From assembly GCA_029565675.1 (NCBI GenBank), contig JAKQNP010000021.1, positions 97,630 through 161,629 on the forward strand: a stretch of 64,000 bases of DNA, read 5' to 3'. The stretch is from a bacterium. GTDB lineage: Bacteria; Zhuqueibacterota; Zhuqueibacteria; Residuimicrobiales; Oceaniaggregativiventaceae. The translations under genes and the position numbers were made by a program. Below, piece after piece: positions 28,142 to 41,365 of this stretch (position 1 is its first letter; the number at the start of each line of letters is the position of its first letter). The notes under the pieces were generated by a model that was given only the letters and a program-made list of their open reading frames with translations, was not told the DNA's origin and searched no databases.

Positions 28142-28924
28142 TTGCAAAAATCCCTATTTGCCTTGAAGCGCGATCTGGTCGAGGTAGGGCGACGCGTCTA
28201 CGACCATGGTTTTGTCGCGTCCAATGACGGCAACATCAGCGCCCGGGTCGATAACGACCGCGTTTTGATTACTCCGACCGGAGTGAGCAAAGGTTTTATG
28301 AAGCCGGAAGAGATGGTGCTGGTGGACATGGACGGCAAGGTTTTGTCCAACACAGGCAAACCTTCTTCTGAAGTGTTCATGCATCTGCGGATCTACAAGG
28401 ATCGCCCCGATGTCAACAGCGTCTGTCATGCCCATCCGCCTTATGCGACGGGTTATGCGGTGGCCGGTCTGGCGATGGATAAATGCGTTTTGCCCGAAGT
28501 CATCATCGTTCTCGGCGAAATCCCTCTGGTTGAATACGGTACTCCCGGCACCGAAGAGTTTTATACACCGGTGCTCAAGTATCTCAAAGATCACGACGCG
28601 TTTCTGTTGGCCAACCACGGAGCCCTGACCATCGGCAAAGACATTTACAATGCCTACTTCAAGATGGAGACCCTTGATCACGCGGCCAAAATTCAGTTCA
28701 TCGCCAAACAGCTTGGCCATCTCAACGTGCTCAAGAGCCAGGACGTGGACAAGCTGATGGAGATTCGCAAACGGGCCGGCATTGCCACCTCCTCGCCCTG
28801 TCTCAGCTGCGAGGAAGACGGTTCCTGTGACATCACCACCGCCTGGTCTGGACCGGAGAACCAACCGGACCGCGAACAGCTGGTGCGCCAGGTGACTGAA
28901 GCCGTGCTCCGCCAGTTGAAATAA
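28142..28924 (+). CDS. class II aldolase (L-fuculose/rhamnulose-1-phosphate aldolase family) with a ~45-aa C-terminal extension
   Basis: TTG start. SNDGNISARV...LITPTGV...HAHPPYATGYAV...LANHGALTIG is FucA-like, with the zinc His ligands present. The extension SSPCLSCEEDGSCDITT...REQLVRQVTEAVLRQLK ends in an amphipathic helix. Confidence 0.85.
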   Translation: MQKSLFALKRDLVEVGRRVYDHGFVASNDGNISARVDNDRVLITPTGVSKGFMKPEEMVLVDMDGKVLSNTGKPSSEVFMHLRIYKDRPDVNSVCHAHPPYATGYAVAGLAMDKCVLPEVIIVLGEIPLVEYGTPGTEEFYTPVLKYLKDHDAFLLANHGALTIGKDIYNAYFKMETLDHAAKIQFIAKQLGHLNVLKSQDVDKLMEIRKRAGIATSSPCLSCEEDGSCDITTAWSGPENQPDREQLVRQVTEAVLRQLK

Positions 28925-29070
28925 CACCACAGCCGGACAAACGAAGAGATCCGTTTCGTCCGGCTGTTTTACTGATCCCGCCCAATTGCCGTTTTGCCGC
29001 TCGAAACATCTTGACAGGCCGGCGGCGAACGCCGCATTACTTTGTCTGAAACCTTAAGAGGTTTGCTGCG

Positions 29071-30282
29071 ATGAAACGACCCTTGCACCCGCTCAGGATA
29101 ATCGTCTGCAATATCGGCTCCAGCAGTTTCAAATTCCAATTGCTCGACATGCCGGCGGAACGCCAGCTGGCGCGTGGCTACACCGAGCGCGTTGGCAGCG
29201 ACGATGCCATCATCACCTACTGGGTCGGCGATCGTCAAGTCCTGCAAACCCGAATTGCGGTGCCCAGCCATCGCCAGGCCGTTCAGCACGCCCTGACCTT
29301 TCTGACCGATCCCGAAATCGGTCTGCTCGACAATCTCGATGCCATCGACGGCATCGGATTCAAGACCATTCAGGCAGGCGACAAAAACGGCTCGGTCCTT
29401 CTGGATGACGCGGTTCTTCAGGCAATGGAGGATTACCGCGATCTGGCACCGGCCCACAATCCGCCTTATCTCACGGCTATCTATATGTTTCGCGAAATGC
29501 TGCCCAAAACACCGCTGGTGGGTGTGTTTGAACCGGGTTTTCACCTGAACATGCCCCTGCATGCCCGCGTTTACGGCACGCCCTATGAATGGATCGAAAA
29601 ATATGGGGTCAAGAAATACGGCTATCACGGTGCCTCGCACCGCTATGTCACTGCCGAAACCGTGCGCGTGCTCGGCTTACCGGCCGACAACCATCGCGTC
29701 ATCACCTGCCATCTGGGCGGGTCGTCGTCGCTTTGCGCCTACAAAAATGGCAAATCCATCGATACCTCCATGGGATTCACGCCGCAATCGGGATTGATCC
29801 AGGGCACCCGCATAGGCGACATGGATCCGTTTGTTCTGCCTTATATCATGGTGAAAAAGGGCATCACCCTGGAACAGGCGCTGGCCGAGTGTTCAAAAAG
29901 CGGCGGGCTCAAGGGTTTGTCCGGAATTTCAGCGGACATGCGCGAGATCAAGGAGGCGATCGCCCGGGGCGATGCGCGTGCCAAACTGGCTTGGGATAAG
30001 TTTATCTATGACATCAAACGCTACATTGGCGAGTATCTCGTTCTGCTCGAAGGGGTGGACGCCGTGACCTTTACCGGTGGCATCGGCGAAAACAATGCCG
30101 ATCTTCGCGAGGAGGTGCTGTCGGCACTGCGATTCCTCGGCCTTGAGTTGGACAAGGCGGCAAATGCGGCGCATGCACAATTGATCACCACCTCAAAGTC
30201 CAAAATCCGGGCGCTGGTGCTGAAAACCGATGAAGAGATCGTGGTGGCGCGCGAGACGGTTCGGGTCATGTCCGGCAGTTGA
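29071..30282 (+). CDS. ackA: acetate (acyl) kinase
   Basis: [16 protein letters not shown] (the ATP-binding N-terminus of AckA) and [10 protein letters not shown]. Confidence 0.9.
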
Positions 30283-30310
30283 GCGCCTGAACGATCAAAA
30301 CCAAGGAATA

Positions 30311-32131
30311 ATGATGATGAACAAGGAACAGGAATTCAAAAAAACGGCTTCGGTGCAACGCCTGGCAGGTACACTGCCAAAAATCGGTATCCGGCCGGTC
30401 ATCGACGGCCGTCGTCGCGGGGTGCGCGAATCGCTGGAAGATCAGACGATGGGCATGGCCAGGCGTGCCGCCGCTTTTCTCGAAAAGAATCTGCGCCATC
30501 CCAATGGTCTGCCGATTGAATGCGTGATTGCCGATACCTGCATCGGCGGTGTGGCGGAAGCGGCAGCAGCGGCAGATAAATTTGCCCGCACCGGTGTCGG
30601 CGTGTCGCTGACCGTCACTCCGTGCTGGTGCTACGGCACCGAAGTGATGGACGCCGACCCCCTGATTCCCAAGGCGGTGTGGGGATTCAATGGAACCGAG
30701 CGGCCCGGCGCTGTCTATCTGGCCGCCGCCCTGGCCGGCTATGCGCAAAAAGGGTTGCCCGCGTTCGGCATCTATGGCCGCGATGTGCAGGACGCTGGCG
30801 ACGATTCCATACCCGCCGATGTGGCGGAAAAATTGCTGCGTTTTGCCAAAGCCGCACTCGCCGTGGCGGAAATGCGCGGTAAATCCTATCTCTCCATGGG
30901 ATCGGTGTCCATGGGTATCGCCGGCTCGGTGGTGAACGACGATTTTTTTCACAGCTGGCTCGGCATGCGCAACGAGACCATCGATATGTCGGAATTCGTG
31001 CGCCGCTTTGAGGAAAAGATCTATGATCGCGAGGAATACGAGCGCGCTCTGACCTGGGTGAAAAAATATTGCCCCGAAGGGCCCGACCTCAATCCCGTTG
31101 ACCAGCAGAACTCGCGCCAACGCAAGGATTGGGAATGGGAAACCGTGGTCAAGATGACCCTCATCGCCCGCGATCTCATGGTCGGCAATCCGGTTTTGGC
31201 TGACCTCGGTTACGGCGAAGAAGCTCTGGGCCACAACGCTCTGCTCGCCGGATTCCAGGGCCAACGCCAGTGGACCGATCACTTTCCCAACGGCGATTTC
31301 ATGGAGGCGATTCTCAACTCCTCCTTTGATTGGAACGGCATACGCCAGCCCTATCTGGTGGCTACCGAAAACGACAGCCTGAACGGTACGGTCATGCTCT
31401 TTGGCCATCTGCTCACCGACACGGCGCAGGTCTTTGCCGACGTGCGCACCTATTGGAGCCCACAGGCGATCAAACGCGTCACCGGCAAAGCCGCTGCAGG
31501 CAAGGCGCAGGATGGCATCATCCATCTCATCAACTCGGGTTCAGCGGCGCTGGACGGCTGCGGCCGCCAGCAGCGCAACGGCCAACCGGCGATGAAACCC
31601 TTTTGGGATATCGAACCGCAAGAGGTCAAGGCTTGCCTCGAGGCCACCCGCTGGTGTCCGGCCAGTCTGGGCTATTTCCGCGGTGGCGGTTTTTCTTCCC
31701 AGTTCGTCACCGTCGGCGAGATGCCGGTGACCCTGTCGCGGCTCAATTTGGTCAAAGGCCTGGGCCCTGTGCTGCAGATCGCTGAAGGCTATACGGTCGA
31801 ATTGCCCGACGATATGCATCAGATTCTCAATCAGCGCACCGATCCCACCTGGCCCACCACCTGGTTTGCGCCGATTCTCACCGGAACCGGAGCGTTTTGC
31901 GACGTTTATTCTGTCATGGCCAACTGGGGCGCCAACCACGGTTCCCTCGGCTATGGCCATTTCGGCGACCGCCTGATTACCCTGGCCAGCCTGCTGCGCA
32001 TTCCCGTGTGTATGCACAACGTTGCCGAAGAACGGATCTATCGGCCGCATGCGTGGAGTGCCTTTGGCACCCAGGACCTGCAAGGTGCCGACTATCGCGC
32101 CTGTCAGGCCTATGGGCCGCTTTATGGTTGA
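30311..32131 (+). CDS. fucI: L-fucose isomerase
   Basis: Near-collinear with E. coli FucI ([24 protein letters not shown]..., [45 protein letters not shown]). The start is at the MMMNKEQ cluster (30311-30319). Confidence 0.9.
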
Positions 32132-32162
32132 GTGCAGAACACAACAGAACAATGGGAAAAAA

Positions 32163-33647
32163 ATGGCCGGAGTTAATTATCTCGCCTTTGATTTTGGCGC
32201 CACCAGCGGACGCACGATTCTGGGCACCCTTGGCGATAAACTTGAATTGCGCGAACTAACCCGCTTTCCCAATCGGCAGATCCGCGCCCTGGGAACAACC
32301 TATTGGGATTTTCTCGATCTCTTCGAGCAGATCAAGCAGGGCCTGGTCTGTGCCGCTGGTGAGGGCCGGGCGATCCGCGGCATCGCAGTCGATACCTGGG
32401 GCGTGGATTTCGGCCTGCTGGCAAGCGATGGAAGCCTGCTCGGCAACCCGGTTTCCTATCGCGATCCGCGCACCGATGGCATGATGGAAAAGGTTTTTGC
32501 CCGTATTGCGCGCGACCGGATCTATCGCCTGACCGGCATCCAATTCATGCAACTCAACACTCTCTATCAGCTTTTTGCGCTGGCGCAAAGCCGCTCGCCG
32601 CAACTCGAGGCGGCCGAGACGCTGCTGTTTATGCCAGACCTGTTCAACTATTTTCTCACCGGCGAAAAGCGCACCGAGTACACCATCGCATCCACTTCCC
32701 AGCTGCTGAATGCGCAAAAGCGCAGCTGGGAAAGAGAAATTCTGACCGCGCTCGATGTGCCGCACTCGATCCTCACACCCATCGTGCGGCCGGGAACCGT
32801 GGTCGGGCCGCTGCTGGACGATCTCGCCAAAGAGACCGGTCTGGGCAGAGTGGAGGTCATCGCCGGCGCCGCTCATGATACCGCCGCAGCGGTGGCCGCC
32901 ACGCCGATGCAATCGCCCGGTGCCGCCTATCTCAGCTCCGGCACCTGGTCGCTCCTCGGCGTCGAAGCCGCCGAACCAGTGATCACCGTTGAGTCCCTGC
33001 ATCGCAATTTCACCAACGAAGGCGGAGTCAACGGCACCGTTCGATTTCTCCGCAATGCCATGGGTATGTGGCTGCTGGAAGGGTGCAAGAGCAGCTGGGA
33101 ACGGCAGGGCGGAAAATATTCCTATCCCGAACTGGTGGCTCTGGCCGAAAAAGCCGAACCGTTTCGCAGCATCGTCGACCCGGATGCGGATCTCTTTATC
33201 CATCCGGAGGAGATGCCGGCGGCGATCGATGAGTTCTGCCGCCGTACCGGTCAGCCGGTACCGGACAGCATCGGCGCCTTTGTGCGCTGTGTGTTCGAGA
33301 GCCTTGCCCTGAAATACCGCTTTATCGTCGAGGGAATCGAGGCCATGCGGCCAATACCCATCGATGTCCTGCACATCGTCGGCGGTGGTTCGCAGAATGA
33401 ATTGCTCAACCGCTTTACCGCCGATGCTCTGGGCATTCCGGTGGTTGCCGGACCTATCGAAGCCACAGCCATCGGCAACATCATGGTGCAGGCTGTGGCC
33501 ACCGGCCAGCTCGCCTCGATCGCCGAAGGCCGGGAGCTGGTGGCACGATCGTTCCCTATGAAGACGGTAGAATCCCGCGACACCGCGCAGTGGGAAGAGC
33601 AGTACCAGCGCATCCGTCCGATGTTTGTGCAGGGATTGGAGGGATAA
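32163..33647 (+). CDS. rhaB: rhamnulokinase-like FGGY-family sugar kinase
   Basis: LAFDFGATSGR, IAVDTWGVDFGLL, VSYRDPRTDG, GIQFMQLNTLYQLFAL, YLSSGTWSLLG and HIVGGGSQN follow E. coli RhaB closely. The start is at MAGVNYL. Confidence 0.85.
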   Translation: MAGVNYLAFDFGATSGRTILGTLGDKLELRELTRFPNRQIRALGTTYWDFLDLFEQIKQGLVCAAGEGRAIRGIAVDTWGVDFGLLASDGSLLGNPVSYRDPRTDGMMEKVFARIARDRIYRLTGIQFMQLNTLYQLFALAQSRSPQLEAAETLLFMPDLFNYFLTGEKRTEYTIASTSQLLNAQKRSWEREILTALDVPHSILTPIVRPGTVVGPLLDDLAKETGLGRVEVIAGAAHDTAAAVAATPMQSPGAAYLSSGTWSLLGVEAAEPVITVESLHRNFTNEGGVNGTVRFLRNAMGMWLLEGCKSSWERQGGKYSYPELVALAEKAEPFRSIVDPDADLFIHPEEMPAAIDEFCRRTGQPVPDSIGAFVRCVFESLALKYRFIVEGIEAMRPIPIDVLHIVGGGSQNELLNRFTADALGIPVVAGPIEATAIGNIMVQAVATGQLASIAEGRELVARSFPMKTVESRDTAQWEEQYQRIRPMFVQGLEG

Positions 33648-34556: not shown

Positions 34557-35855
34557 ATGGATGTGTTGATGGAAGAAACCAACTTGCCCAGAGATGAGCT
34601 GCATCGGCTCAAAATTGCGGTCGAAGAGCTCAGCATCCTCAACGATCTGGCGGTCGCCGCCGGCAGCACACTGGAAGAGGAAAAAATGCTCGACATCATC
34701 GTGCACAAGAGCATCAAGGCTTTGCATGCCGAGCAGGGCGCCATCCAACTGATCACCGAACAGGCCGACTCTCCCCTCAGGACTCTGATACGGGAGTTGG
34801 ATTCGAGCAGCCGAATTTTAGACTATAAAGTGGGCATCAACATCACCGGCTGGGTGCTCAAATACCAAAAGCCGTTGGTCATTGCCGATCTCGCGACCGA
34901 CACCCGTTTTCTGACGACAGAACAGGAGCGTTCAGAAATCCATTCGCTTCTCTGCGTGCCCATCCGCCATCGCGACCAGCTTTTAGGAGTGCTGATGGTG
35001 GTCAACCGCAAGGGCAGTGAGGCTTTTAGCGAAGATGACCAGCGTTTGCTCTCGATCATCGCTTCTCAATCCGGTCAACTCATCCACAATATGAAATTGC
35101 AGCAATCGGAGCTGGAAGAACGGCGACTCAAACAAGAATTGGAGTTGGCGCACAAGATCCAGCAAAAGCTCTTGCCAAAAGAAGATCCGACCTGCAGATT
35201 GTTTGAAGTCGCCGCTTGTTATGAACCGGCCGAAGCCGTAGCGGGTGACTATTACGATTATTTTTACCGCGATGAACAATTGAGTGGAATTGTCATTGCG
35301 GATGTCTCCGGGCATGGCACTTCGGCGGCGATGGTGATGACTCTGGTCAAGGGTATTCTCTGTTCTGTGACACAAAAAAATCAGTCGCCCGCCCAAATCC
35401 TTACAGAAGTCAATGCAATTCTTTGCAAAATACTGCCCCGTCAGATGTTCGTCACCATGATCTTCATACAGCTCGATCCCAGCCATAAACGTTTGCGTTT
35501 TGCCAGCGCCGGCCATACGCCGTTGGTTTTCTATCAAAACCAGAGCAATTCTTGCCAGATGATGGAATGCCGAGCGACGGCTCTGGGCCTCAAATCCGAG
35601 GTTCAATATGAAGAAAAAGAGCTGGCTGTTGCGTCGGGTGATTTCATCTTCGCTTATACCGATGGCGTAACAGAGGCGGCTGACGCAGAACACCAGCTGT
35701 TCGGTGAAGAAAGGCTTATTCACTCGGTGTGCGCCTCCTGTGCCGAAAGCGCATCGGATATCATTTGTCGTGTGCGCCAGGATGTGCGTGATTTCCTCGG
35801 CCATACCTTGCATGAAGATGATATCGCCATGATCGGCATCAAAATAAAACCTTGA
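34557..35855 (+). CDS. GAF-domain PP2C-type (SpoIIE/RsbU-like) serine/threonine phosphatase
   Basis: GAF region (INITGWVLKYQKPLVIADL...), then PP2C motifs (VAGDYYDYF, IADVSGHG, ASAGH, TDGVTEA). Confidence 0.75.
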   Translation: MDVLMEETNLPRDELHRLKIAVEELSILNDLAVAAGSTLEEEKMLDIIVHKSIKALHAEQGAIQLITEQADSPLRTLIRELDSSSRILDYKVGINITGWVLKYQKPLVIADLATDTRFLTTEQERSEIHSLLCVPIRHRDQLLGVLMVVNRKGSEAFSEDDQRLLSIIASQSGQLIHNMKLQQSELEERRLKQELELAHKIQQKLLPKEDPTCRLFEVAACYEPAEAVAGDYYDYFYRDEQLSGIVIADVSGHGTSAAMVMTLVKGILCSVTQKNQSPAQILTEVNAILCKILPRQMFVTMIFIQLDPSHKRLRFASAGHTPLVFYQNQSNSCQMMECRATALGLKSEVQYEEKELAVASGDFIFAYTDGVTEAADAEHQLFGEERLIHSVCASCAESASDIICRVRQDVRDFLGHTLHEDDIAMIGIKIKP

Positions 35856-35964: not shown

Positions 35965-36792
35965 ATGATCGGTCGAACCATTTCCCATTATCAAATCCTC
36001 GCCAAACTCGGCGAAGGCGGCATGGGGATTGTGTATCAAGCCGAGGACCTCAAACTCAAGCGCCCCGTTGCGTTGAAATTTTTACCGCCTGCCTTGACGG
36101 CTGACTCCGAGACCAAAAAACGATTCATACATGAAGCCCGAACCGCCTCCTCGTTGCAGCACAGCAATATCTGTACAATCCATGATATCGACGAAACCGA
36201 CGACGGACAGGTGTTTATCGTCATGGATTGCTATCAAGGCATGACCTTAAAAGAACGACTCGCACAGGGTAGCATGCCGACCGAAGAGGTTGTTCGCATC
36301 GCCGTGCAAATCGCTGCAGGTCTTGCGGAGGCACATGAAAAGGGAATCGTGCATCGCGACATCAAACCGGCCAATATCATGATCACGGACGCAGGTGTTG
36401 TCAAGATTCTGGATTTTGGACTCTCCAAGCTCGCAGGACACCCGGGCATTACGCGAACCGGGACAACCATCGGCACGCCGGCCTATATGGCGCCTGAGCA
36501 AGCACAGGGCAAAGAATCTGACTGCCGAACAGACATCTGGTCTTTCGGCGTCGTTTTGTTCGAAATGCTCAGCGGCCGACAGCCTTTTGCAGCCGAATAC
36601 GATCAGGCCGTTCTCTTTTCAATCGTCAATGAAGAACCCGCAGAGATCGGCAATTTTCGTGCGGATATTCCAGAGCACCTCATCGCTCTCTGCAAACAGT
36701 GCCTGGAAAAGGACAAATCGCCCCCAATCCATGGTGAAAGTGCTGGAATGGCTGAAAACAAGAGAGTCGCGATCCACGAAAAATGTGTTTAG
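35965..36792 (+). CDS. Hanks-type Ser/Thr protein kinase, catalytic domain portion; the gene appears frameshifted at a C5 run (36721-36725)
   Basis: YQILAKLGEGGMGIVYQAED...ALKFL; HRDIKPANIM; DFGLSK; GTPAYMAPE. The frame ends 23 codons after CLEKDKSP. Confidence 0.8.
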   Translation: MIGRTISHYQILAKLGEGGMGIVYQAEDLKLKRPVALKFLPPALTADSETKKRFIHEARTASSLQHSNICTIHDIDETDDGQVFIVMDCYQGMTLKERLAQGSMPTEEVVRIAVQIAAGLAEAHEKGIVHRDIKPANIMITDAGVVKILDFGLSKLAGHPGITRTGTTIGTPAYMAPEQAQGKESDCRTDIWSFGVVLFEMLSGRQPFAAEYDQAVLFSIVNEEPAEIGNFRADIPEHLIALCKQCLEKDKSPPIHGESAGMAENKRVAIHEKCV

Positions 36793-38368
36793 CACGCCGA
36801 ATCGATGGAAAATTTCCAAGATTTCAATGATCTTTTCCCTGGTCTTATTGATTTTGGTATCCGGATGGCATATCGGTACTCGTTTTCTGCGTTCCGGCCG
36901 CTCTGCAAACCAGAGCGTGCGCATTGCAGTCCTGCCTTTTCAAAACCAGACTGGGGACAAAGCGAGCGATTTGCCGATCCTCATTCAGTCGGTAATCGTT
37001 GGCGAATTGCTGGGTGTAGATGAACTAAAAATAATCGACCCTTACAGCCTGAACACGATGATCGAAAGTTCTTTCGCCGGTTTTGAGTTGAAGAGAGAAA
37101 CGCCGTTTTTTCACGCGCTGCGCAATCTTGAAATTGCTTTTATCATCAATGGCGCCATCGTTAAAACCGGAGACCAGTATTTGATTCAATCGAGTATAAC
37201 CAATCTCTTGAATTCGGAAATCATCTTTACAAACAGCATCGCGATAGAAAATGAAGATGTCCTTCCGATTCTTCGAAATCTGGCGCAAAAAATATTATAT
37301 TGTTTTCAGATCAAAATCTTGGCCTATGATCAGGAGAAGGACCTGAGACCCTGGCTGAAAACCGATTCACAGAATCTTTCTGCCATTCGAGCTTTTATTC
37401 AGGCCAGTCGGTATAACTATCAAAGAGAATCCGAACTTGCTGAACGATACCTCCGTCAAGCCATCGAACTCGATTCCGCTTTTATCTCGCCGCGAATTTG
37501 GCTTATCTCCAAGTTGGTCGAGAAGGACGATCTCACGGAAGCTTCCTTACACTATCGGCAGCTTGTTGCCCTTCAGCTGCGAGCCAGTCCTTTCGAACAG
37601 GTAATGATCGATTGGGCAGGCGCCTGTATCGAACAAGATAGTGCTAAGCAGGCGCGCTATTTAGCCCTGGCTCTGGATTATTCGCCCCATAACGATATTT
37701 TGCTTTTTTCGCTGGCCCGACTGCGCTACATCATGGGCGATAATCAGGAAAGCATTGAGGCCTTGAACGATCTGATTAAATTGAAAACCAAATTTTCTCC
37801 GACCTATTACCTGTTGGGAGCGAATTACTTTCAGCTTGAAAGGTATAAAGATGCCCGGGAAACGCTGGAAGGAGCGCTGGTGTACAAACCTGTTGAACCC
37901 TTGATCTATAGTTTGTTGGCCAGATTGAGCATCTTCGACGGCGATACTGCCAAAGCCCTGTACTATGAAAAACTGTATTTGAACCGTATCAGCGAACAAA
38001 GAATGCCCCTGAGCAAGGCCTATGAAAATCTCGCCCTGCAAAACCATGCCCATGATCGGTATGATGCGGCGATTGGCTATTTCCGTTTGGCCATTGCAGC
38101 AGATGAGAATCGTGCAGAATATCACAAAGGATTGGCGGACGTTTTGTTCGAGAAGGGATTGGCGGATTCAGCGGCAGGCGAATACAGAACGGCTCTGAGG
38201 CTCGATCCGAACGACGCCGATTCGCATTATAGACTTGGCCGGATTTTTCAACAAAAAAATACAGCCGATCTGGCCATCAGCCATTATCGTGCTTATCTGC
38301 AACTGGATTCATCGAGCACAAAGTCGACGATGGTCAGAAAGTTTTTAAAGCAATTGCAGCCCGACTAG
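36719..38368 (+). CDS. C-terminal portion of the same Ser/Thr kinase gene (juxtamembrane segment, TM helix, IAVLPF-motif TolB-like region and TPR repeats), in the +1 frame relative to the kinase domain
   Basis: ...VKVLEWLKTRE...ISMIFSLVLLILVSGW (TM), IAVLPFQNQTGD, then multiple TPR-like repeats (AIGYFRLAIAADENRAEYHKGLADVLFEKG...). Confidence 0.7.
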   Translation, partial: RPQSMVKVLEWLKTRESRSTKNVFSTPNRWKISKISMIFSLVLLILVSGWHIGTRFLRSGRSANQSVRIAVLPFQNQTGDKASDLPILIQSVIVGELLGVDELKIIDPYSLNTMIESSFAGFELKRETPFFHALRNLEIAFIINGAIVKTGDQYLIQSSITNLLNSEIIFTNSIAIENEDVLPILRNLAQKILYCFQIKILAYDQEKDLRPWLKTDSQNLSAIRAFIQASRYNYQRESELAERYLRQAIELDSAFISPRIWLISKLVEKDDLTEASLHYRQLVALQLRASPFEQVMIDWAGACIEQDSAKQARYLALALDYSPHNDILLFSLARLRYIMGDNQESIEALNDLIKLKTKFSPTYYLLGANYFQLERYKDARETLEGALVYKPVEPLIYSLLARLSIFDGDTAKALYYEKLYLNRISEQRMPLSKAYENLALQNHAHDRYDAAIGYFRLAIAADENRAEYHKGLADVLFEKGLADSAAGEYRTALRLDPNDADSHYRLGRIFQQKNTADLAISHYRAYLQLDSSSTKSTMVRKFLKQLQPD

Positions 38369-38400: not shown

Positions 38401-38826
38401 ATGAAACGGGAGAAAAAATCGCAAAACAAAAGAGTCGGTATCAAAGATGTTTATGTTCTCGCTTGTACCGACAGGAAATTTCTCAAAGCGCTGTTAAAAA
38501 ATGCGGACAAAGCTCTCGATGCGTACAAGATCAAGCTGAGCAAATCGGCTCGACAGGAGCTGGTCACCATGCTCGATGCTCAACTGGACATCAAAGGCAG
38601 GGATCTTGTGAGTTATCTGAATAAATTTTACTCCAGCGCCCATAAAGGCATCAGACTGCCGCCGCCTCCTCCGCCGCCGTGGGAGGTTATCGTACCGCCG
38701 GGAAAAAGGTCGTGGGACGAATTGACAGAACTCATCCGAGTTGAAAATCGCAAATTGCTGCAAGAGCTGATGGAGAAATTGCCTGGTGGCGCAGAAAAAC
38801 CCGAGGAGCCTGGTGAAATCGGTTGA
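38401..38826 (+). CDS. hypothetical small protein with a polyproline tract
   Basis: ORF with a plausible RBS. Contains RLPPPPPPPWEVIVPPGKR. No family recognised. Confidence 0.4.
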   Translation: MKREKKSQNKRVGIKDVYVLACTDRKFLKALLKNADKALDAYKIKLSKSARQELVTMLDAQLDIKGRDLVSYLNKFYSSAHKGIRLPPPPPPPWEVIVPPGKRSWDELTELIRVENRKLLQELMEKLPGGAEKPEEPGEIG

Positions 38827-39796
38827 TTCCAAAATCAATATCCGCCTGCAGACATTGATTCGATCATGGCCGCAAACCCTTGCCGGAGATTTCAGCGACT
38901 ATTGCTTAAGGCTGCACAGAGCTGATGCCTGTCAAGCAGAATCATCTGCGACCGGATGCTCCTATCCCTATTGGATCCTGTTGCCTCTTTGGTTGGAAAG
39001 CAAATATCAGGCAGCCCCCCAAAAGAGCGCCGAAACCTTTTTCGCCGATGTGTTGTGGGCGGAATATTGCCTTTTTCTTTCGCTGCGCCTTCAGGATGAT
39101 ATTTTTGACCTGCAGACAGATAAATTCTCGCTTCTTTTTGCCGCCAACCTGGTTTTTCTGGAAGCAGAGGATGTGCTTTCGCGATATTTCGATTGCTCCA
39201 GTGAATTTTTGACAACATTTCGCCAGTGTCAGCGACAAAGTTTGTGTGCCATTGCAGAAAATGCGAATCTGCACCAGTCTCTGCAAAGATCCCCCGGCAA
39301 GCTGCTGGCCGGCTATGCCAAAGTCGCCTCGATTTTCGACATCGGCTTGGCCGCAATTTGCATTTTCTGCGAACGGCAAGATGATTTGCCTCACCTGATC
39401 AAATTTTCCGCGTCGATGGCCATTGCCGGTCAGATCATCGATGACCTTGAAGATATCGAGGAGGATCTGATTGGCGGAAAATACAATTATGCGGTTCAAC
39501 GGCTGCTGCGGCAGTGCGTTATAAACACAATTGAGCCAGAGACTATTTTAGCGATTGTTGGCAAAGAAATGCTCCTGTCGGAAGGCCTCAGCGCCTTGTG
39601 CGGAGAAATTCGCCGACATCTCACGCTCGCCGAGAAAGCCATCAAGCCGCTCGGTCTGCCGGAAGCGGTTCGCATGGTGCAATGGTATAAAATGGGTATG
39701 GATCAGATGCAAGAACGATTGCTTATCGGTCGCGTCGACTGGATTTTTAAAAAATATGGAATCAATTGCCGAACAAATATCCGCATATTGAATTGA
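38786..39796 (+). CDS. divergent squalene/phytoene-synthase-like (SQS_PSY, class I isoprenoid synthase fold) protein
   Basis: GTG start. First Asp-rich motif LRLQDDIFDLQTD. Second motif AGQIIDDLEDIEEDLIGGKYNY resembles the SQS/PSY AFQLTNIxRDVxEDxxxGRxYLP motif. Assigned by eye. Confidence 0.45.
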   Translation: MAQKNPRSLVKSVDSKINIRLQTLIRSWPQTLAGDFSDYCLRLHRADACQAESSATGCSYPYWILLPLWLESKYQAAPQKSAETFFADVLWAEYCLFLSLRLQDDIFDLQTDKFSLLFAANLVFLEAEDVLSRYFDCSSEFLTTFRQCQRQSLCAIAENANLHQSLQRSPGKLLAGYAKVASIFDIGLAAICIFCERQDDLPHLIKFSASMAIAGQIIDDLEDIEEDLIGGKYNYAVQRLLRQCVINTIEPETILAIVGKEMLLSEGLSALCGEIRRHLTLAEKAIKPLGLPEAVRMVQWYKMGMDQMQERLLIGRVDWIFKKYGINCRTNIRILN

Positions 39797-40104: not shown

Positions 40105-40635
40105 ATGAAAAAATTCAACCACTTCTTTTTCAGTGCTTTATTGCTCAGCATAATTGCACTTCATGCCCAGGAGAAAAATTTTACTTTTCGCATACCGGTT
40201 GAACTTTACTCGATCCCGGCAGATATCAAGTCTTTCAGTGTAAATGTTGAAATTTATGACCGTGAATTCAATGCAGAGGGTTATCCTATACCGGGATCAC
40301 TAATCGGTTATGGGAATCCAGGCCTAATTCCGATTGTGGATGGCGAATATGTTGACACGGTCGTCGTAAGCTTCAATGAAGGACTCAGAAAAGATCCGGC
40401 AAAAGCTGTTTTTTGGAGTGTGGTTCTTACCTTGTTTGGGCCGCCAGGATACCAGGGTGGGGTTTTTAATGCAATGGGCCCTGATACACCCTATCCGTAT
40501 GACCCAACGAAACCGCTTGTCTACGCTCTGACTGGTTATATTGCCCAAACTGCACAATCTCAGCAATCCCCTAAGAAAATAGATTATCCCCTGGAGTACC
40601 TCAGAGAGCAGGCACCCAACATTCTCAGAAAGTAG
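40105..40635 (+). CDS. secreted hypothetical protein in a low-GC island
   Basis: Signal peptide MKKFNHFFFSALLLSIIALHA. No family recognised. Confidence 0.45.
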   Translation: MKKFNHFFFSALLLSIIALHAQEKNFTFRIPVELYSIPADIKSFSVNVEIYDREFNAEGYPIPGSLIGYGNPGLIPIVDGEYVDTVVVSFNEGLRKDPAKAVFWSVVLTLFGPPGYQGGVFNAMGPDTPYPYDPTKPLVYALTGYIAQTAQSQQSPKKIDYPLEYLREQAPNILRK

Positions 40636-40757: not shown

Positions 40758-41168
40758 CTATTCTTGCGGTTGATGCAGCTCGACCAACAGATAATGCTGA
40801 TAGCGGTTAAAATCGTCGTCCAATGTAAAGATCGGCAGGTGATGGCGAGCGGCCACGGCGCAGATGAGAAAATTGGTGTTCGATCCCTGAATTCTGTTGC
40901 GGCGACAGAGAATAAAGAATTCCGCCGCTTTTTCATAGTCGTTCGTGCCGATCGGCAAATCCGGAAACGGCTCTAGATAGAGGCGCAGTTTTTCGAATTG
41001 CGCATCGAATCGGATTCCCGACAACAGCTCCTGGCGAACAGGGCCGATCATCTGCACCCACCCCTTGTCGATGAGTCGTCCCAGTTCCTCGGTGACCTTG
41101 GGCTCTCCTTCGGTTCCGGTTCGGCGCAATGCCAGCAACCACACCGATGTATCGACGAGAACTTTCAT
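40758..41168 (-). CDS. vapC: type II toxin VapC (PIN-domain ribonuclease)
   Basis: MKVLVDTSVWLLAL...; acidic PIN residues. It overlaps the upstream antitoxin by 4 bp. Confidence 0.8.
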   Translation of the reverse strand: MKVLVDTSVWLLALRRTGTEGEPKVTEELGRLIDKGWVQMIGPVRQELLSGIRFDAQFEKLRLYLEPFPDLPIGTNDYEKAAEFFILCRRNRIQGSNTNFLICAVAARHHLPIFTLDDDFNRYQHYLLVELHQPQE

Positions 41169-41365
41169 TCTCTTGCCCGCTGCTTTTTATAGTCGGTTTC
41201 GGAATCATAGACAATGGATCCGAACAACTCCTTGATTCTAAGCTGTTCGCGTCTTTGTATATACTCGACCAGCGCTTCGGTTACGGCCGCTTTTTTCGTC
41301 CGGTGTTTGCCGATGGCTCGCGCTTTTTCGATCAGCTTGTCATCTAAAGCCAGATTGGTGGGCAT
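41165..41365 (-). CDS. vapB: type II antitoxin VapB-like
   Basis: A 66-aa protein directly upstream of, and overlapping, vapC. Confidence 0.65.
   Translation of the reverse strand: MPTNLALDDKLIEKARAIGKHRTKKAAVTEALVEYIQRREQLRIKELFGSIVYDSETDYKKQRARE

Follow-up and report, generated by a model that had tools for sequence, protein, structure and literature searches.

Organization of the locus

We analysed a stretch of 64,000 nucleotides (nt), hereafter the window, from contig JAKQNP010000021.1 of a bacterium of the Zhuqueibacterota (GenBank assembly GCA_029565675.1, positions 97,630 to 161,629 of the forward strand). The work centres on three consecutive genes: a receptor-type Ser/Thr kinase gene, a small Pro-rich open reading frame (ORF) that we call X, and the gene that follows it, Q. 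An earlier reading made from the letters alone (the sequence-only reading) had pointed out the ORFs of X and Q and had quoted one motif in the former, LPPPPPPPW, and two in the latter, DDIFD and QIIDDLEDIEEDLIGGKYN. All of these are present in the window, where the three genes and their features are placed as follows.

35965..38368, plus strand: receptor-type Hanks Ser/Thr kinase gene, read in two frames (35965-36792 and 36395-38368)
36714..36718, plus strand: site of a CAAAT deletion in the kinase gene, from DNA alignment to the metagenome contig L004
38401..38826, plus strand: gene X, an ORF of 141 amino acids (aa) with an ATG start and a GGAGG ribosome-binding site just 5′ of it; putative precursor peptide
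38443..38586, plus strand: putative leader region of X of the nitrile-hydratase-type leader peptide (NHLP) kind, residues 15-62, KDVYVLACTDRKFLKALLKNADKALDAYKIKLSK..., from matches to NHLP models
38656..38682, plus strand: core motif of X, LPPPPPPPW, with W94 (38680-38682) as predicted prenyl acceptor
38683..38826, plus strand: C-terminal extension of X, 47 residues past W94, its end overlapping the start of Q
38786..39796, plus strand: gene Q, a 336-aa ORF with a GTG start; PalQ-like, trans-isoprenyl-diphosphate-synthase fold, predicted peptide tryptophan prenyltransferase
39095..39109, plus strand: first Asp-rich motif of Q, DDIFD (D104, D105, D108)
39431..39487, plus strand: second Asp-rich region of Q (Q216, D219, D223, N234)

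Read as its longest ORF, Q overlaps X by 41 nt. A second in-frame GTG, at 38813, is preceded at 4 nt by the Shine-Dalgarno sequence GAGGAG and is the counterpart of the start in a 50 % identical homologue from a Cytophagia metagenome-assembled genome (MAG), L006, where the overlap with the X stop is also 14 nt. For these reasons the true start is probably GTG 38813, which would give a protein of 327 aa and place 38786 27 nt too early; residue numbers used here are nevertheless those of the 336-aa ORF. A scan of 34.3-40.8 kb for promoters and terminators returned none exceeding the shuffled expectation.

Q represents a conserved family with a predicted isoprenoid-synthase fold

Q scored 12.9 bits against PF00348, below the Pfam cut-off of 27, had no match to PF00494 and found nothing meaningful in NCBIfam. 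When the 336-aa sequence was searched singly against PDB sequences no match was obtained, and a six-sequence profile gave noise only. A word-indexed search of 5.8 billion proteins returned five relatives. In a profile search of 1.84 billion cluster representatives we obtained 1044 matches at E <= 1e-3 and 233 at E <= 1e-30, nearly all of them 300-330 aa long.

From an exhaustive profile search, 124 homologues were aligned (alignment A3). Five columns are invariant (D104, D108, D220, D223 and D227) and four nearly so: D105 and D219 are kept in 123/124 sequences, Q216 in 120/124 and N234 in 117/124. W63, P67, Q93, R101 and a few others are also conserved in at least 90 %. Since they are invariant or near-invariant in 124 homologues, the Asp-rich motifs are not chance occurrences; they are the most conserved features of the family, and this much of the sequence-only reading stands. 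Among basic residues, only those at R101 and R/K232 are conserved. Canonical synthases carry an RRG after the first motif, whereas none is conserved after the DDxxD of the Q family, which pairs with a peptide gene.

An AlphaFold2 model of Q computed with the 124-sequence alignment is all-alpha (predicted local distance difference test score, pLDDT, 92.3; predicted template modelling score, pTM, 0.91) and has the fold of a trans-isoprenyl diphosphate synthase (trans-IDS). It replaced an earlier six-sequence model with a pLDDT of 70. The class-I isoprenoid-synthase fold that had been proposed for the 336-aa protein is thus borne out by the model. The accompanying assignment to the head-to-head enzymes, squalene synthase, phytoene synthase (SQS/PSY) and HpnD, found no support: PF00494 gives no match, and the closest characterised relative by sequence is another protein, PalQ (see below). 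SQS/PSY belong to the same isoprenoid-synthase superfamily and have two acidic motifs, but structural comparison of the Q model returned no squalene or phytoene synthase among the 60 matches listed, and Foldseek agrees. No carotenoid genes lie nearby, as had already been remarked, and neither do hopanoid genes. Identity of Q to canonical trans-IDS (PF00348; octaprenyl diphosphate synthase 3tc1) and to Ord1 (9v4g) is 11-16 %. Judged from the model, Q has an isoprenoid-synthase fold, yet it is atypical as a chain-elongating synthase because it scores below the Pfam threshold, lacks the RRG and has few conserved basic residues.

Fold and motifs alone would also fit a small-molecule isoprenoid enzyme, whether a divergent polyprenyl diphosphate synthase, an SQS/PSY-like enzyme or a terpene synthase, with X as an unrelated or regulatory partner. 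The fold and both Asp-rich motifs are typical of enzymes that use isoprenoid diphosphates, and some relatives of Q give weak Pfam matches: sub-threshold to PF00348 in 27/124 members, and to PF00494 in 26/124 (best 1.3e-5), with CrtM at E 0.064 in a profile search. The second motif, written DxxEDLxxG[KR]xN, resembles the PSY motif and counts on the same side. We regard such a role as improbable in view of the structure ranking, the Pfam thresholds, the missing basic residues and the near-constant peptide partner described below. The searches suggest instead that the Q family is a sizeable, so far uncharacterised sister family of the known peptide tryptophan prenyltransferases, without a Pfam or NCBIfam model.

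PalQ is the closest characterised relative by sequence

The enzymes of isoprenoid-synthase fold known to prenylate tryptophan in peptides are limited to ComQ, found in Bacillus and its relatives, the PalQ of Paenibacillaceae, ChrPC and, from Chloroflexi, StheQ. All characterised trans-IDS-like peptide prenyltransferases (ComQ, ChrPC-P, PalQ) target Trp, and ComQ and ChrPC accept an internal one (2026 review, PMC13290415). In Paenibacillus alvei, which has the PalP-PalX-PalQ system, PalX ends in a Trp that PalQ prenylates at C3 of the indole, giving a pyrroloindoline, and PalQ rejects residues after the acceptor; the NHLP domain of PalX enhances the reaction, and the histidine kinase PalP is encoded in the cluster (Miyata, Ito & Fujinami 2023, PMC10853753). 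The published PalQ cluster has only Paenibacillaceae, Cohnella, Geobacillus and Clostridium members.

We recovered PalQ via the published PalX sequence, on P. alvei contig AMBZ01000001 (L020:3994-4932). Aligned by hhalign, the Q-family profile A3 and PalQ match with 97.7 % probability (E 2.1e-12, 202 columns), and BLASTP aligns window Q with PalQ at E 2e-7 and 25 % identity across 181 residues. In hmmsearch PalQ reached 59.6 bits, aligned from position 10 to 305 of the 318-position profile; among 177,635 PDB sequences at the same Z the highest score, 24.9 bits, came from a local match to a polyprenyl synthase. PalQ, like Q, has no Pfam match. D104, D105 and D108 of Q correspond to D89, D90 and D93 of PalQ, and Q216, D219, D223 and N234 to Q197, D200, D204 and N215, within the aligned PalQ stretch LQMNDDWADWQTDLQDGSYN. 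The skeleton common to both proteins comprises an N-terminal LLPxW, [IL]QDDxxD and QxxDDxxDxxxDLxxGxYN. By these sequence comparisons PalQ is the closest characterised relative of Q, with ComQ, StheQ and ChrPC compared by description only.

So described, ComQ and StheQ share with the present pair a trans-IDS-fold enzyme, a conserved first Asp-rich motif and a small peptide, encoded alongside, that carries its Trp close to the C-terminus. StheQ/StheX is the ComQ-like pair of Chloroflexi reported in a 2026 preprint, where the Trp of StheX is second from the C-terminus. Both enzymes differ from Q in their second Asp-rich motif (SARM), which is a pseudo-SARM (NDxxx), with no metal bound there in the StheQ structures; the motif is invariant in the Q family and dispensable in PalQ.

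X has a probable NHLP-type leader and an invariant tryptophan

A hydropathy scan of X found neither a signal peptide nor a hydrophobic segment. Q homologues in four independent contigs have directly upstream a 101-142-aa ORF with a helical N-terminal region and PPPxPPPPW, and an X homologue lies directly 5′ of Q in 17/17 distinct MAG and metagenome loci first examined. The Pro-rich tract with its Trp recurs in the small proteins of every related locus. In an alignment of 17 X homologues (A5), W94 is the sole invariant residue besides Met1. In 14/17 of them the last Trp stands within 1-4 residues of the C-terminus, as in ...GGPPPWPTD, ...TPPPPPWVC, ...GGKGVWA and ...PPNPWQA, a position comparable to that in ComX, StheX and PalX. 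Two homologues from the 29 further metagenome loci treated below end exactly in Trp (...LGFLPW in L042, ...PPPPPTW in L043). Because Trp makes up only ~1-2 % of residues in most X homologues, this near-C-terminal placement is much more frequent than chance would give.

Their N-terminal regions have the consensus V..A..D..F...L..[ND]P..AL...G..LS, which is the NHLP one. NF038399, of the NHLP clan, is matched by 8/17 homologues (best E 7.8e-12) and TIGR03793 (leader_NHLP) by 4/17; the match of window X to NF038399 is weak (16.6 bits, E 0.0064, cut-off 40). Over the leader, the X-family profile aligns with the PalX family alignment at 87.8 % in hhalign (E 3.3e-6). X resembles PalX in combining a probable NHLP-type leader with a conserved Trp in a C-terminal core, and this leader sets the X precursor apart from ComX. 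Its core differs from that of PalX in being Pro-rich and in the place of the Trp, which is strictly C-terminal in PalX and in the X family usually 1-4 residues from the end, with 47 residues following it in the window clade. The sequence-only reading had seen in X and Q a standalone terpenoid or lipid-modifying module; the small protein is better described as a probable NHLP-type peptide with an invariant Trp, and as the likeliest substrate of the enzyme.

An extension after the Trp is found in the window clade (window, L005/L006 and L002); it is conserved at the protein level in L005/L006 and shorter in L002. Most other lineages lack it, and L027, L028 and L036 have extensions of other kinds. 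In L008, L011, L014, L015, L017/L050 and L019 a Gly-Gly stands 5-15 residues before the conserved Trp (RGG/PPPWPTD, TGG/KGVWA), and cleavage at that point, predicted from the sequences, would give ComX-sized peptides of 5-17 residues.

Seven consecutive Pro codons (38659-38679) directly precede the acceptor Trp codon. Tracts of consecutive Pro stall ribosomes and need elongation factor P (EF-P). Expression of X and also of Q, whose start overlaps the end of X, might depend on EF-P, which is speculation.

A receptor kinase gene precedes X and Q across phyla

Further loci were searched for with a 17-sequence Q alignment. The X profile, built from 17 proteins, was run on 29 further metagenome loci outside profile building, and in 27 of these an X homologue was found upstream of Q. 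For the kinase, 34 loci were informative, their upstream sequence being ~650 nt or longer. A kinase homologue ends 330-710 nt 5′ of Q in 30 of them, the space being filled by X, and ~1.2-1.3 kb 5′ of Q in two more (L011 and L042), giving 32/34. The sequence-only reading had left this receptor kinase unlinked to its module, which is not standalone: the kinase gene almost always precedes the X-Q pair, and the survey of homologous neighbourhoods suggested there shows the kinase-X-Q order recurring across phyla. Loci with the cassette come from Cytophagia, Bacteroidota, Chlorobiaceae, Ignavibacteria, Vicinamibacteria/Acidobacteriota, KSB1 and Chromatiales MAGs. Kinase-X synteny spans at least five phyla, and the hosts belong to environmental (soil/sediment) Gram-negative phyla.

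A sensor kinase encoded beside the pair is a trait shared with PalX/PalQ and ComX/ComQ. The kinase itself differs: PalP is a HisKA/HATPase histidine kinase, the present one a Ser/Thr kinase of the Hanks type bearing a TPR ectodomain. The genes run in the order kinase-X-Q on one strand, compared with Q-X and a convergent kinase in PalPXQ, and the hosts are Gram-negative phyla instead of Paenibacillaceae or Clostridium. ComQXPA has a ComP-type histidine kinase and a ComA response regulator, neither of which is found here, the adjacent kinase consisting of Pkinase (Hanks) and TPR domains. Across the 48 loci that were clustered, neither a HisKA/HATPase kinase nor a response regulator is conserved near the cassette.

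Some loci have additional kinase genes. In L005 and L014 one is also present downstream of Q. In L006 (500-12993) the cassette lies within a row of five Ser/Thr kinase paralogues that have the same kinase domain and different C-terminal domains. One has a PD40/WD40 beta-propeller there, two have TPR and one has an FGE-sulfatase plus an alpha/beta-hydrolase; the fifth is truncated where the locus stops. X and Q follow just one of the two TPR-type kinases there (3168-5579).

The kinase has a receptor layout and is frameshifted in the window

The two kinase ORFs of the window match Pkinase (35965..36792, 1.5e-53) and TPR families (36395..38368) in Pfam. In two ~99 % identical metagenome contigs, L004 and L025, the kinase is a single frame of 802 aa, and tblastn of the intact L004 protein places its residues 1-252 in frame 1 and 251-802 in frame 2 of the window. 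Where L004 has a tandem copy of CAAAT, CAAATCAAAT, the window has one, at 36714-36718, so that a 5-nt deletion frameshifts its kinase. The deletion may be an assembly error, or else a genuine mutation that inactivates the gene or arises from a slippage-prone site.

The intact protein is made up of an N-terminal kinase domain, one hydrophobic helix (~residues 285-305) and ~500 residues of TolB_N-like and TPR sequence. As predicted from this sequence, it has a single-pass receptor layout with the TPR domain outward, that is, extracytoplasmic.

A Trp-prenylation pair acting on the kinase is the probable interpretation

By analogy with the characterised systems, we consider it probable that X and Q are a PalX/PalQ- (ComX/ComQ-)type Trp-prenylation pair whose product acts on the upstream receptor kinase. 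X would be translated with an NHLP-type leader ahead of its Pro-rich core, LPPPPPPPW, and Q would bind both. With Mg2+ at its DDxxD motifs, Q would hold an allylic prenyl diphosphate, which may be anywhere from C5 to C20, ionise it and alkylate the indole of W94 with the prenyl group. As in ComX and PalX, the prenyl group may be attached at indole C3 with closure of a pyrroloindoline. Whatever processing and export X may undergo, its prenylated form would be a ligand, or a membrane-tethered partner, of the Ser/Thr kinase, in parallel to ComX-ComP and PalX-PalP. On this view the kinase gene, X and Q would together make up a signalling cassette resembling ComQXP, with a Hanks kinase in place of the histidine kinase.

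Several observations weigh against this interpretation. Identity between Q and PalQ is ~20-25 %. Canonical synthases, too, have a Gln ahead of their second Asp motif (FQxxDDxxD), so that this residue is not diagnostic, and the motif itself (DDxxDxxxD) is intact and invariant in Q, unlike the pseudo-SARM of ComQ and StheQ. Window X continues for 47 residues past W94, and PalQ accepts none after its Trp; by analogy, either the extension would be removed first or Q would accept an internal Trp as ComQ and ChrPC do. The X proteins of the window, L006 and L002 have no GG before the PPPPPPPW core. All-against-all clustering of ORFs from the 48 loci detected no conserved protease, exporter or further tailoring enzyme.

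Two more such points concern the window itself. Its receptor kinase is frameshifted: the sensing arm may be inactive there, or the frameshift may be an assembly error or population variant. Window Q differs at ten residues from its 97 % identical L004 relative, one of them being L142 (39209-39211), at which L004 and 104/124 relatives have Trp. The cassette may be decaying in this strain. Between window and L004 there are 8 synonymous and 10 non-synonymous differences in Q and 13 and 9 in the C-terminal part of the kinase, too few to judge relaxed selection.

Our proposal for the product of X is tentative: a Gram-negative pheromone system in which the TPR ectodomain of the Hanks kinase would detect, on the outside of the cell, a Pro-rich peptide prenylated at its Trp. 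With the same tentativeness we would place this system in Bacteroidota/Chlorobi/Ignavibacteria, Acidobacteriota, KSB1 and some Gammaproteobacteria. Because no protease or exporter is conserved nearby, the genomic context does not support secretion of the peptide. W94 might also be prenylated to make something other than a secreted signal, namely a cell-associated, lipid-anchored adaptor or regulator, or a lipopeptide natural product merely regulated by the kinase. As an adaptor, prenylated X would dock on the membrane next to the kinase, in a bacterial equivalent of the protein prenylation known from eukaryotes. The lack of a signal peptide in X and of a conserved exporter or leader protease beside the cassette favours such a product, as do the missing Gly-Gly cleavage motif of the window clade and the long extensions after the Trp (helical in the window clade, Lys-rich in L028), which are more protein-like than pheromone cores. 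Against this, many lineages have, ahead of a short Trp core at the C-terminus, the Gly-Gly that is typical of NHLP leaders subject to cleavage, the large TPR domain of the kinase is extracytoplasmic, and exporters and proteases of ComX are also encoded outside its operon. We judge a non-secreted product to be rather unlikely, and keep it under consideration because of the 47-residue extension, the missing Gly-Gly, the lack of a linked exporter and the invariant second Asp motif.

Neighbouring genes and flanking DNA

In addition to X and the Ser/Thr kinase, Q has as neighbours in the window a phosphatase, a 176-aa protein and a toxin-antitoxin pair.

34557..35855, plus strand: GAF-SpoIIE/PP2C phosphatase (Pfam SpoIIE 2.9e-47, GAF)
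40105..40635, plus strand: 176-aa protein with no Pfam match
40758-41365, minus strand: VapB (PF09957) / VapC-PIN (PF01850) toxin-antitoxin pair
L011:373-2112, L018 ~6966-7493, and L027: phosphatase homologues adjoining the cassette in other loci

A GAF-SpoIIE/PP2C phosphatase adjoins the cassette in four independent lineages (window/L004/L025, L011, L018 and L027). It may serve the kinase as an accessory but does not regularly belong to the cassette; in the clustering of the 48 loci it was the one partial exception to the finding that nothing besides the kinase is conserved around the X-Q pair. That of L011 also has a cNMP-binding domain. A STAS-domain protein is encoded 3′ of the cassette in the L008/L009/L030/L032 group. 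Together, phosphatase and STAS neighbours hint at a link to partner-switching or phospho-signalling.

The 176-aa protein has no match in NCBIfam or PADLOC either. Its N-terminus, MKKFNHFFFSALLLSIIALHAQE, resembles a signal peptide, although no stretch scored as strongly hydrophobic in a 19-residue hydropathy scan.

The cassette lies in DNA of lower GC content, 48.7 % over ~33.7-41.7 kb and 55.4 % in the rest of the window. GC at third codon positions (GC3) is 0.52-0.60 in this stretch and 0.69-0.70 in the adjacent fucose-utilisation genes. On its left, at 28142-33647, are genes for a class II aldolase, acetate kinase, L-fucose isomerase and FGGY kinase, with 57-60 % GC; the VapBC pair is at its right edge, outside the cassette. 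Shorter GC troughs of like depth occur at 6-7, 11-12 and 19-22 kb of the window. A tRNA scan of the window found no tRNA gene, hence no evidence of an integration site, and there is no integrase among the ORFs examined in or beside the low-GC stretch. The sequence-only reading had seen here a low-GC island that suggested horizontal acquisition. The GC difference is real and moderate; acquisition is only weakly suggested, because the drop is moderate, similar troughs exist elsewhere, and neither tRNA gene nor integrase was found.

The setting raises the question of whether kinase, X and Q might be an anti-phage defence or toxin-like island module, with the kinase as effector and X and Q as accessories. 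The kinase domain matches the PD-T4-6 and mad6 kinase models of PADLOC (E 6e-88), the cassette sits in the lower-GC stretch beside VapBC, and in L006 it stands in the row of kinase paralogues. The PADLOC matches, however, span the generic kinase domain only (residues ~1-275), and X, Q, the phosphatase and the 176-aa protein have none; the VapBC and 176-aa genes are kept only in near-identical contigs, not in other lineages, and the kinase has the architecture of a receptor with an extracytoplasmic TPR domain. A defence function is accordingly very improbable.

Relation to known systems and significance

The predicted chemistry and the two-gene logic are known already, as PalQ/PalX and ComQ/ComX. 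The present cassette differs from them in its deeply diverged Q clade, whose second motif is intact, in the Pro-rich cores of X, in having a Hanks-type receptor kinase and in its Gram-negative environmental hosts. In the literature we found ComQ-like systems only in Firmicutes and, since 2026, Chloroflexi, and no description of the Q family or of a cassette of prenyltransferase, NHLP peptide and Ser/Thr kinase. We know of no pairing of a Trp-prenylated peptide with a Hanks-type receptor kinase.

If the interpretation of X and Q as a Trp-prenylation pair is true, the known range of ribosomal-peptide lipidation would widen considerably, and the Q family would supply enzymes that may accept a Pro-flanked or internal Trp, of use for peptide lipidation. 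Orphan receptor Ser/Thr kinases of bacteria, a large group, would gain a testable candidate ligand. Lipid-peptide signalling between cells beyond the Gram-positives would become directly testable. Should the more tentative pheromone proposal hold as well, the logic of ComQXP-like quorum sensing would be found to operate with a eukaryote-like kinase instead of a two-component system.

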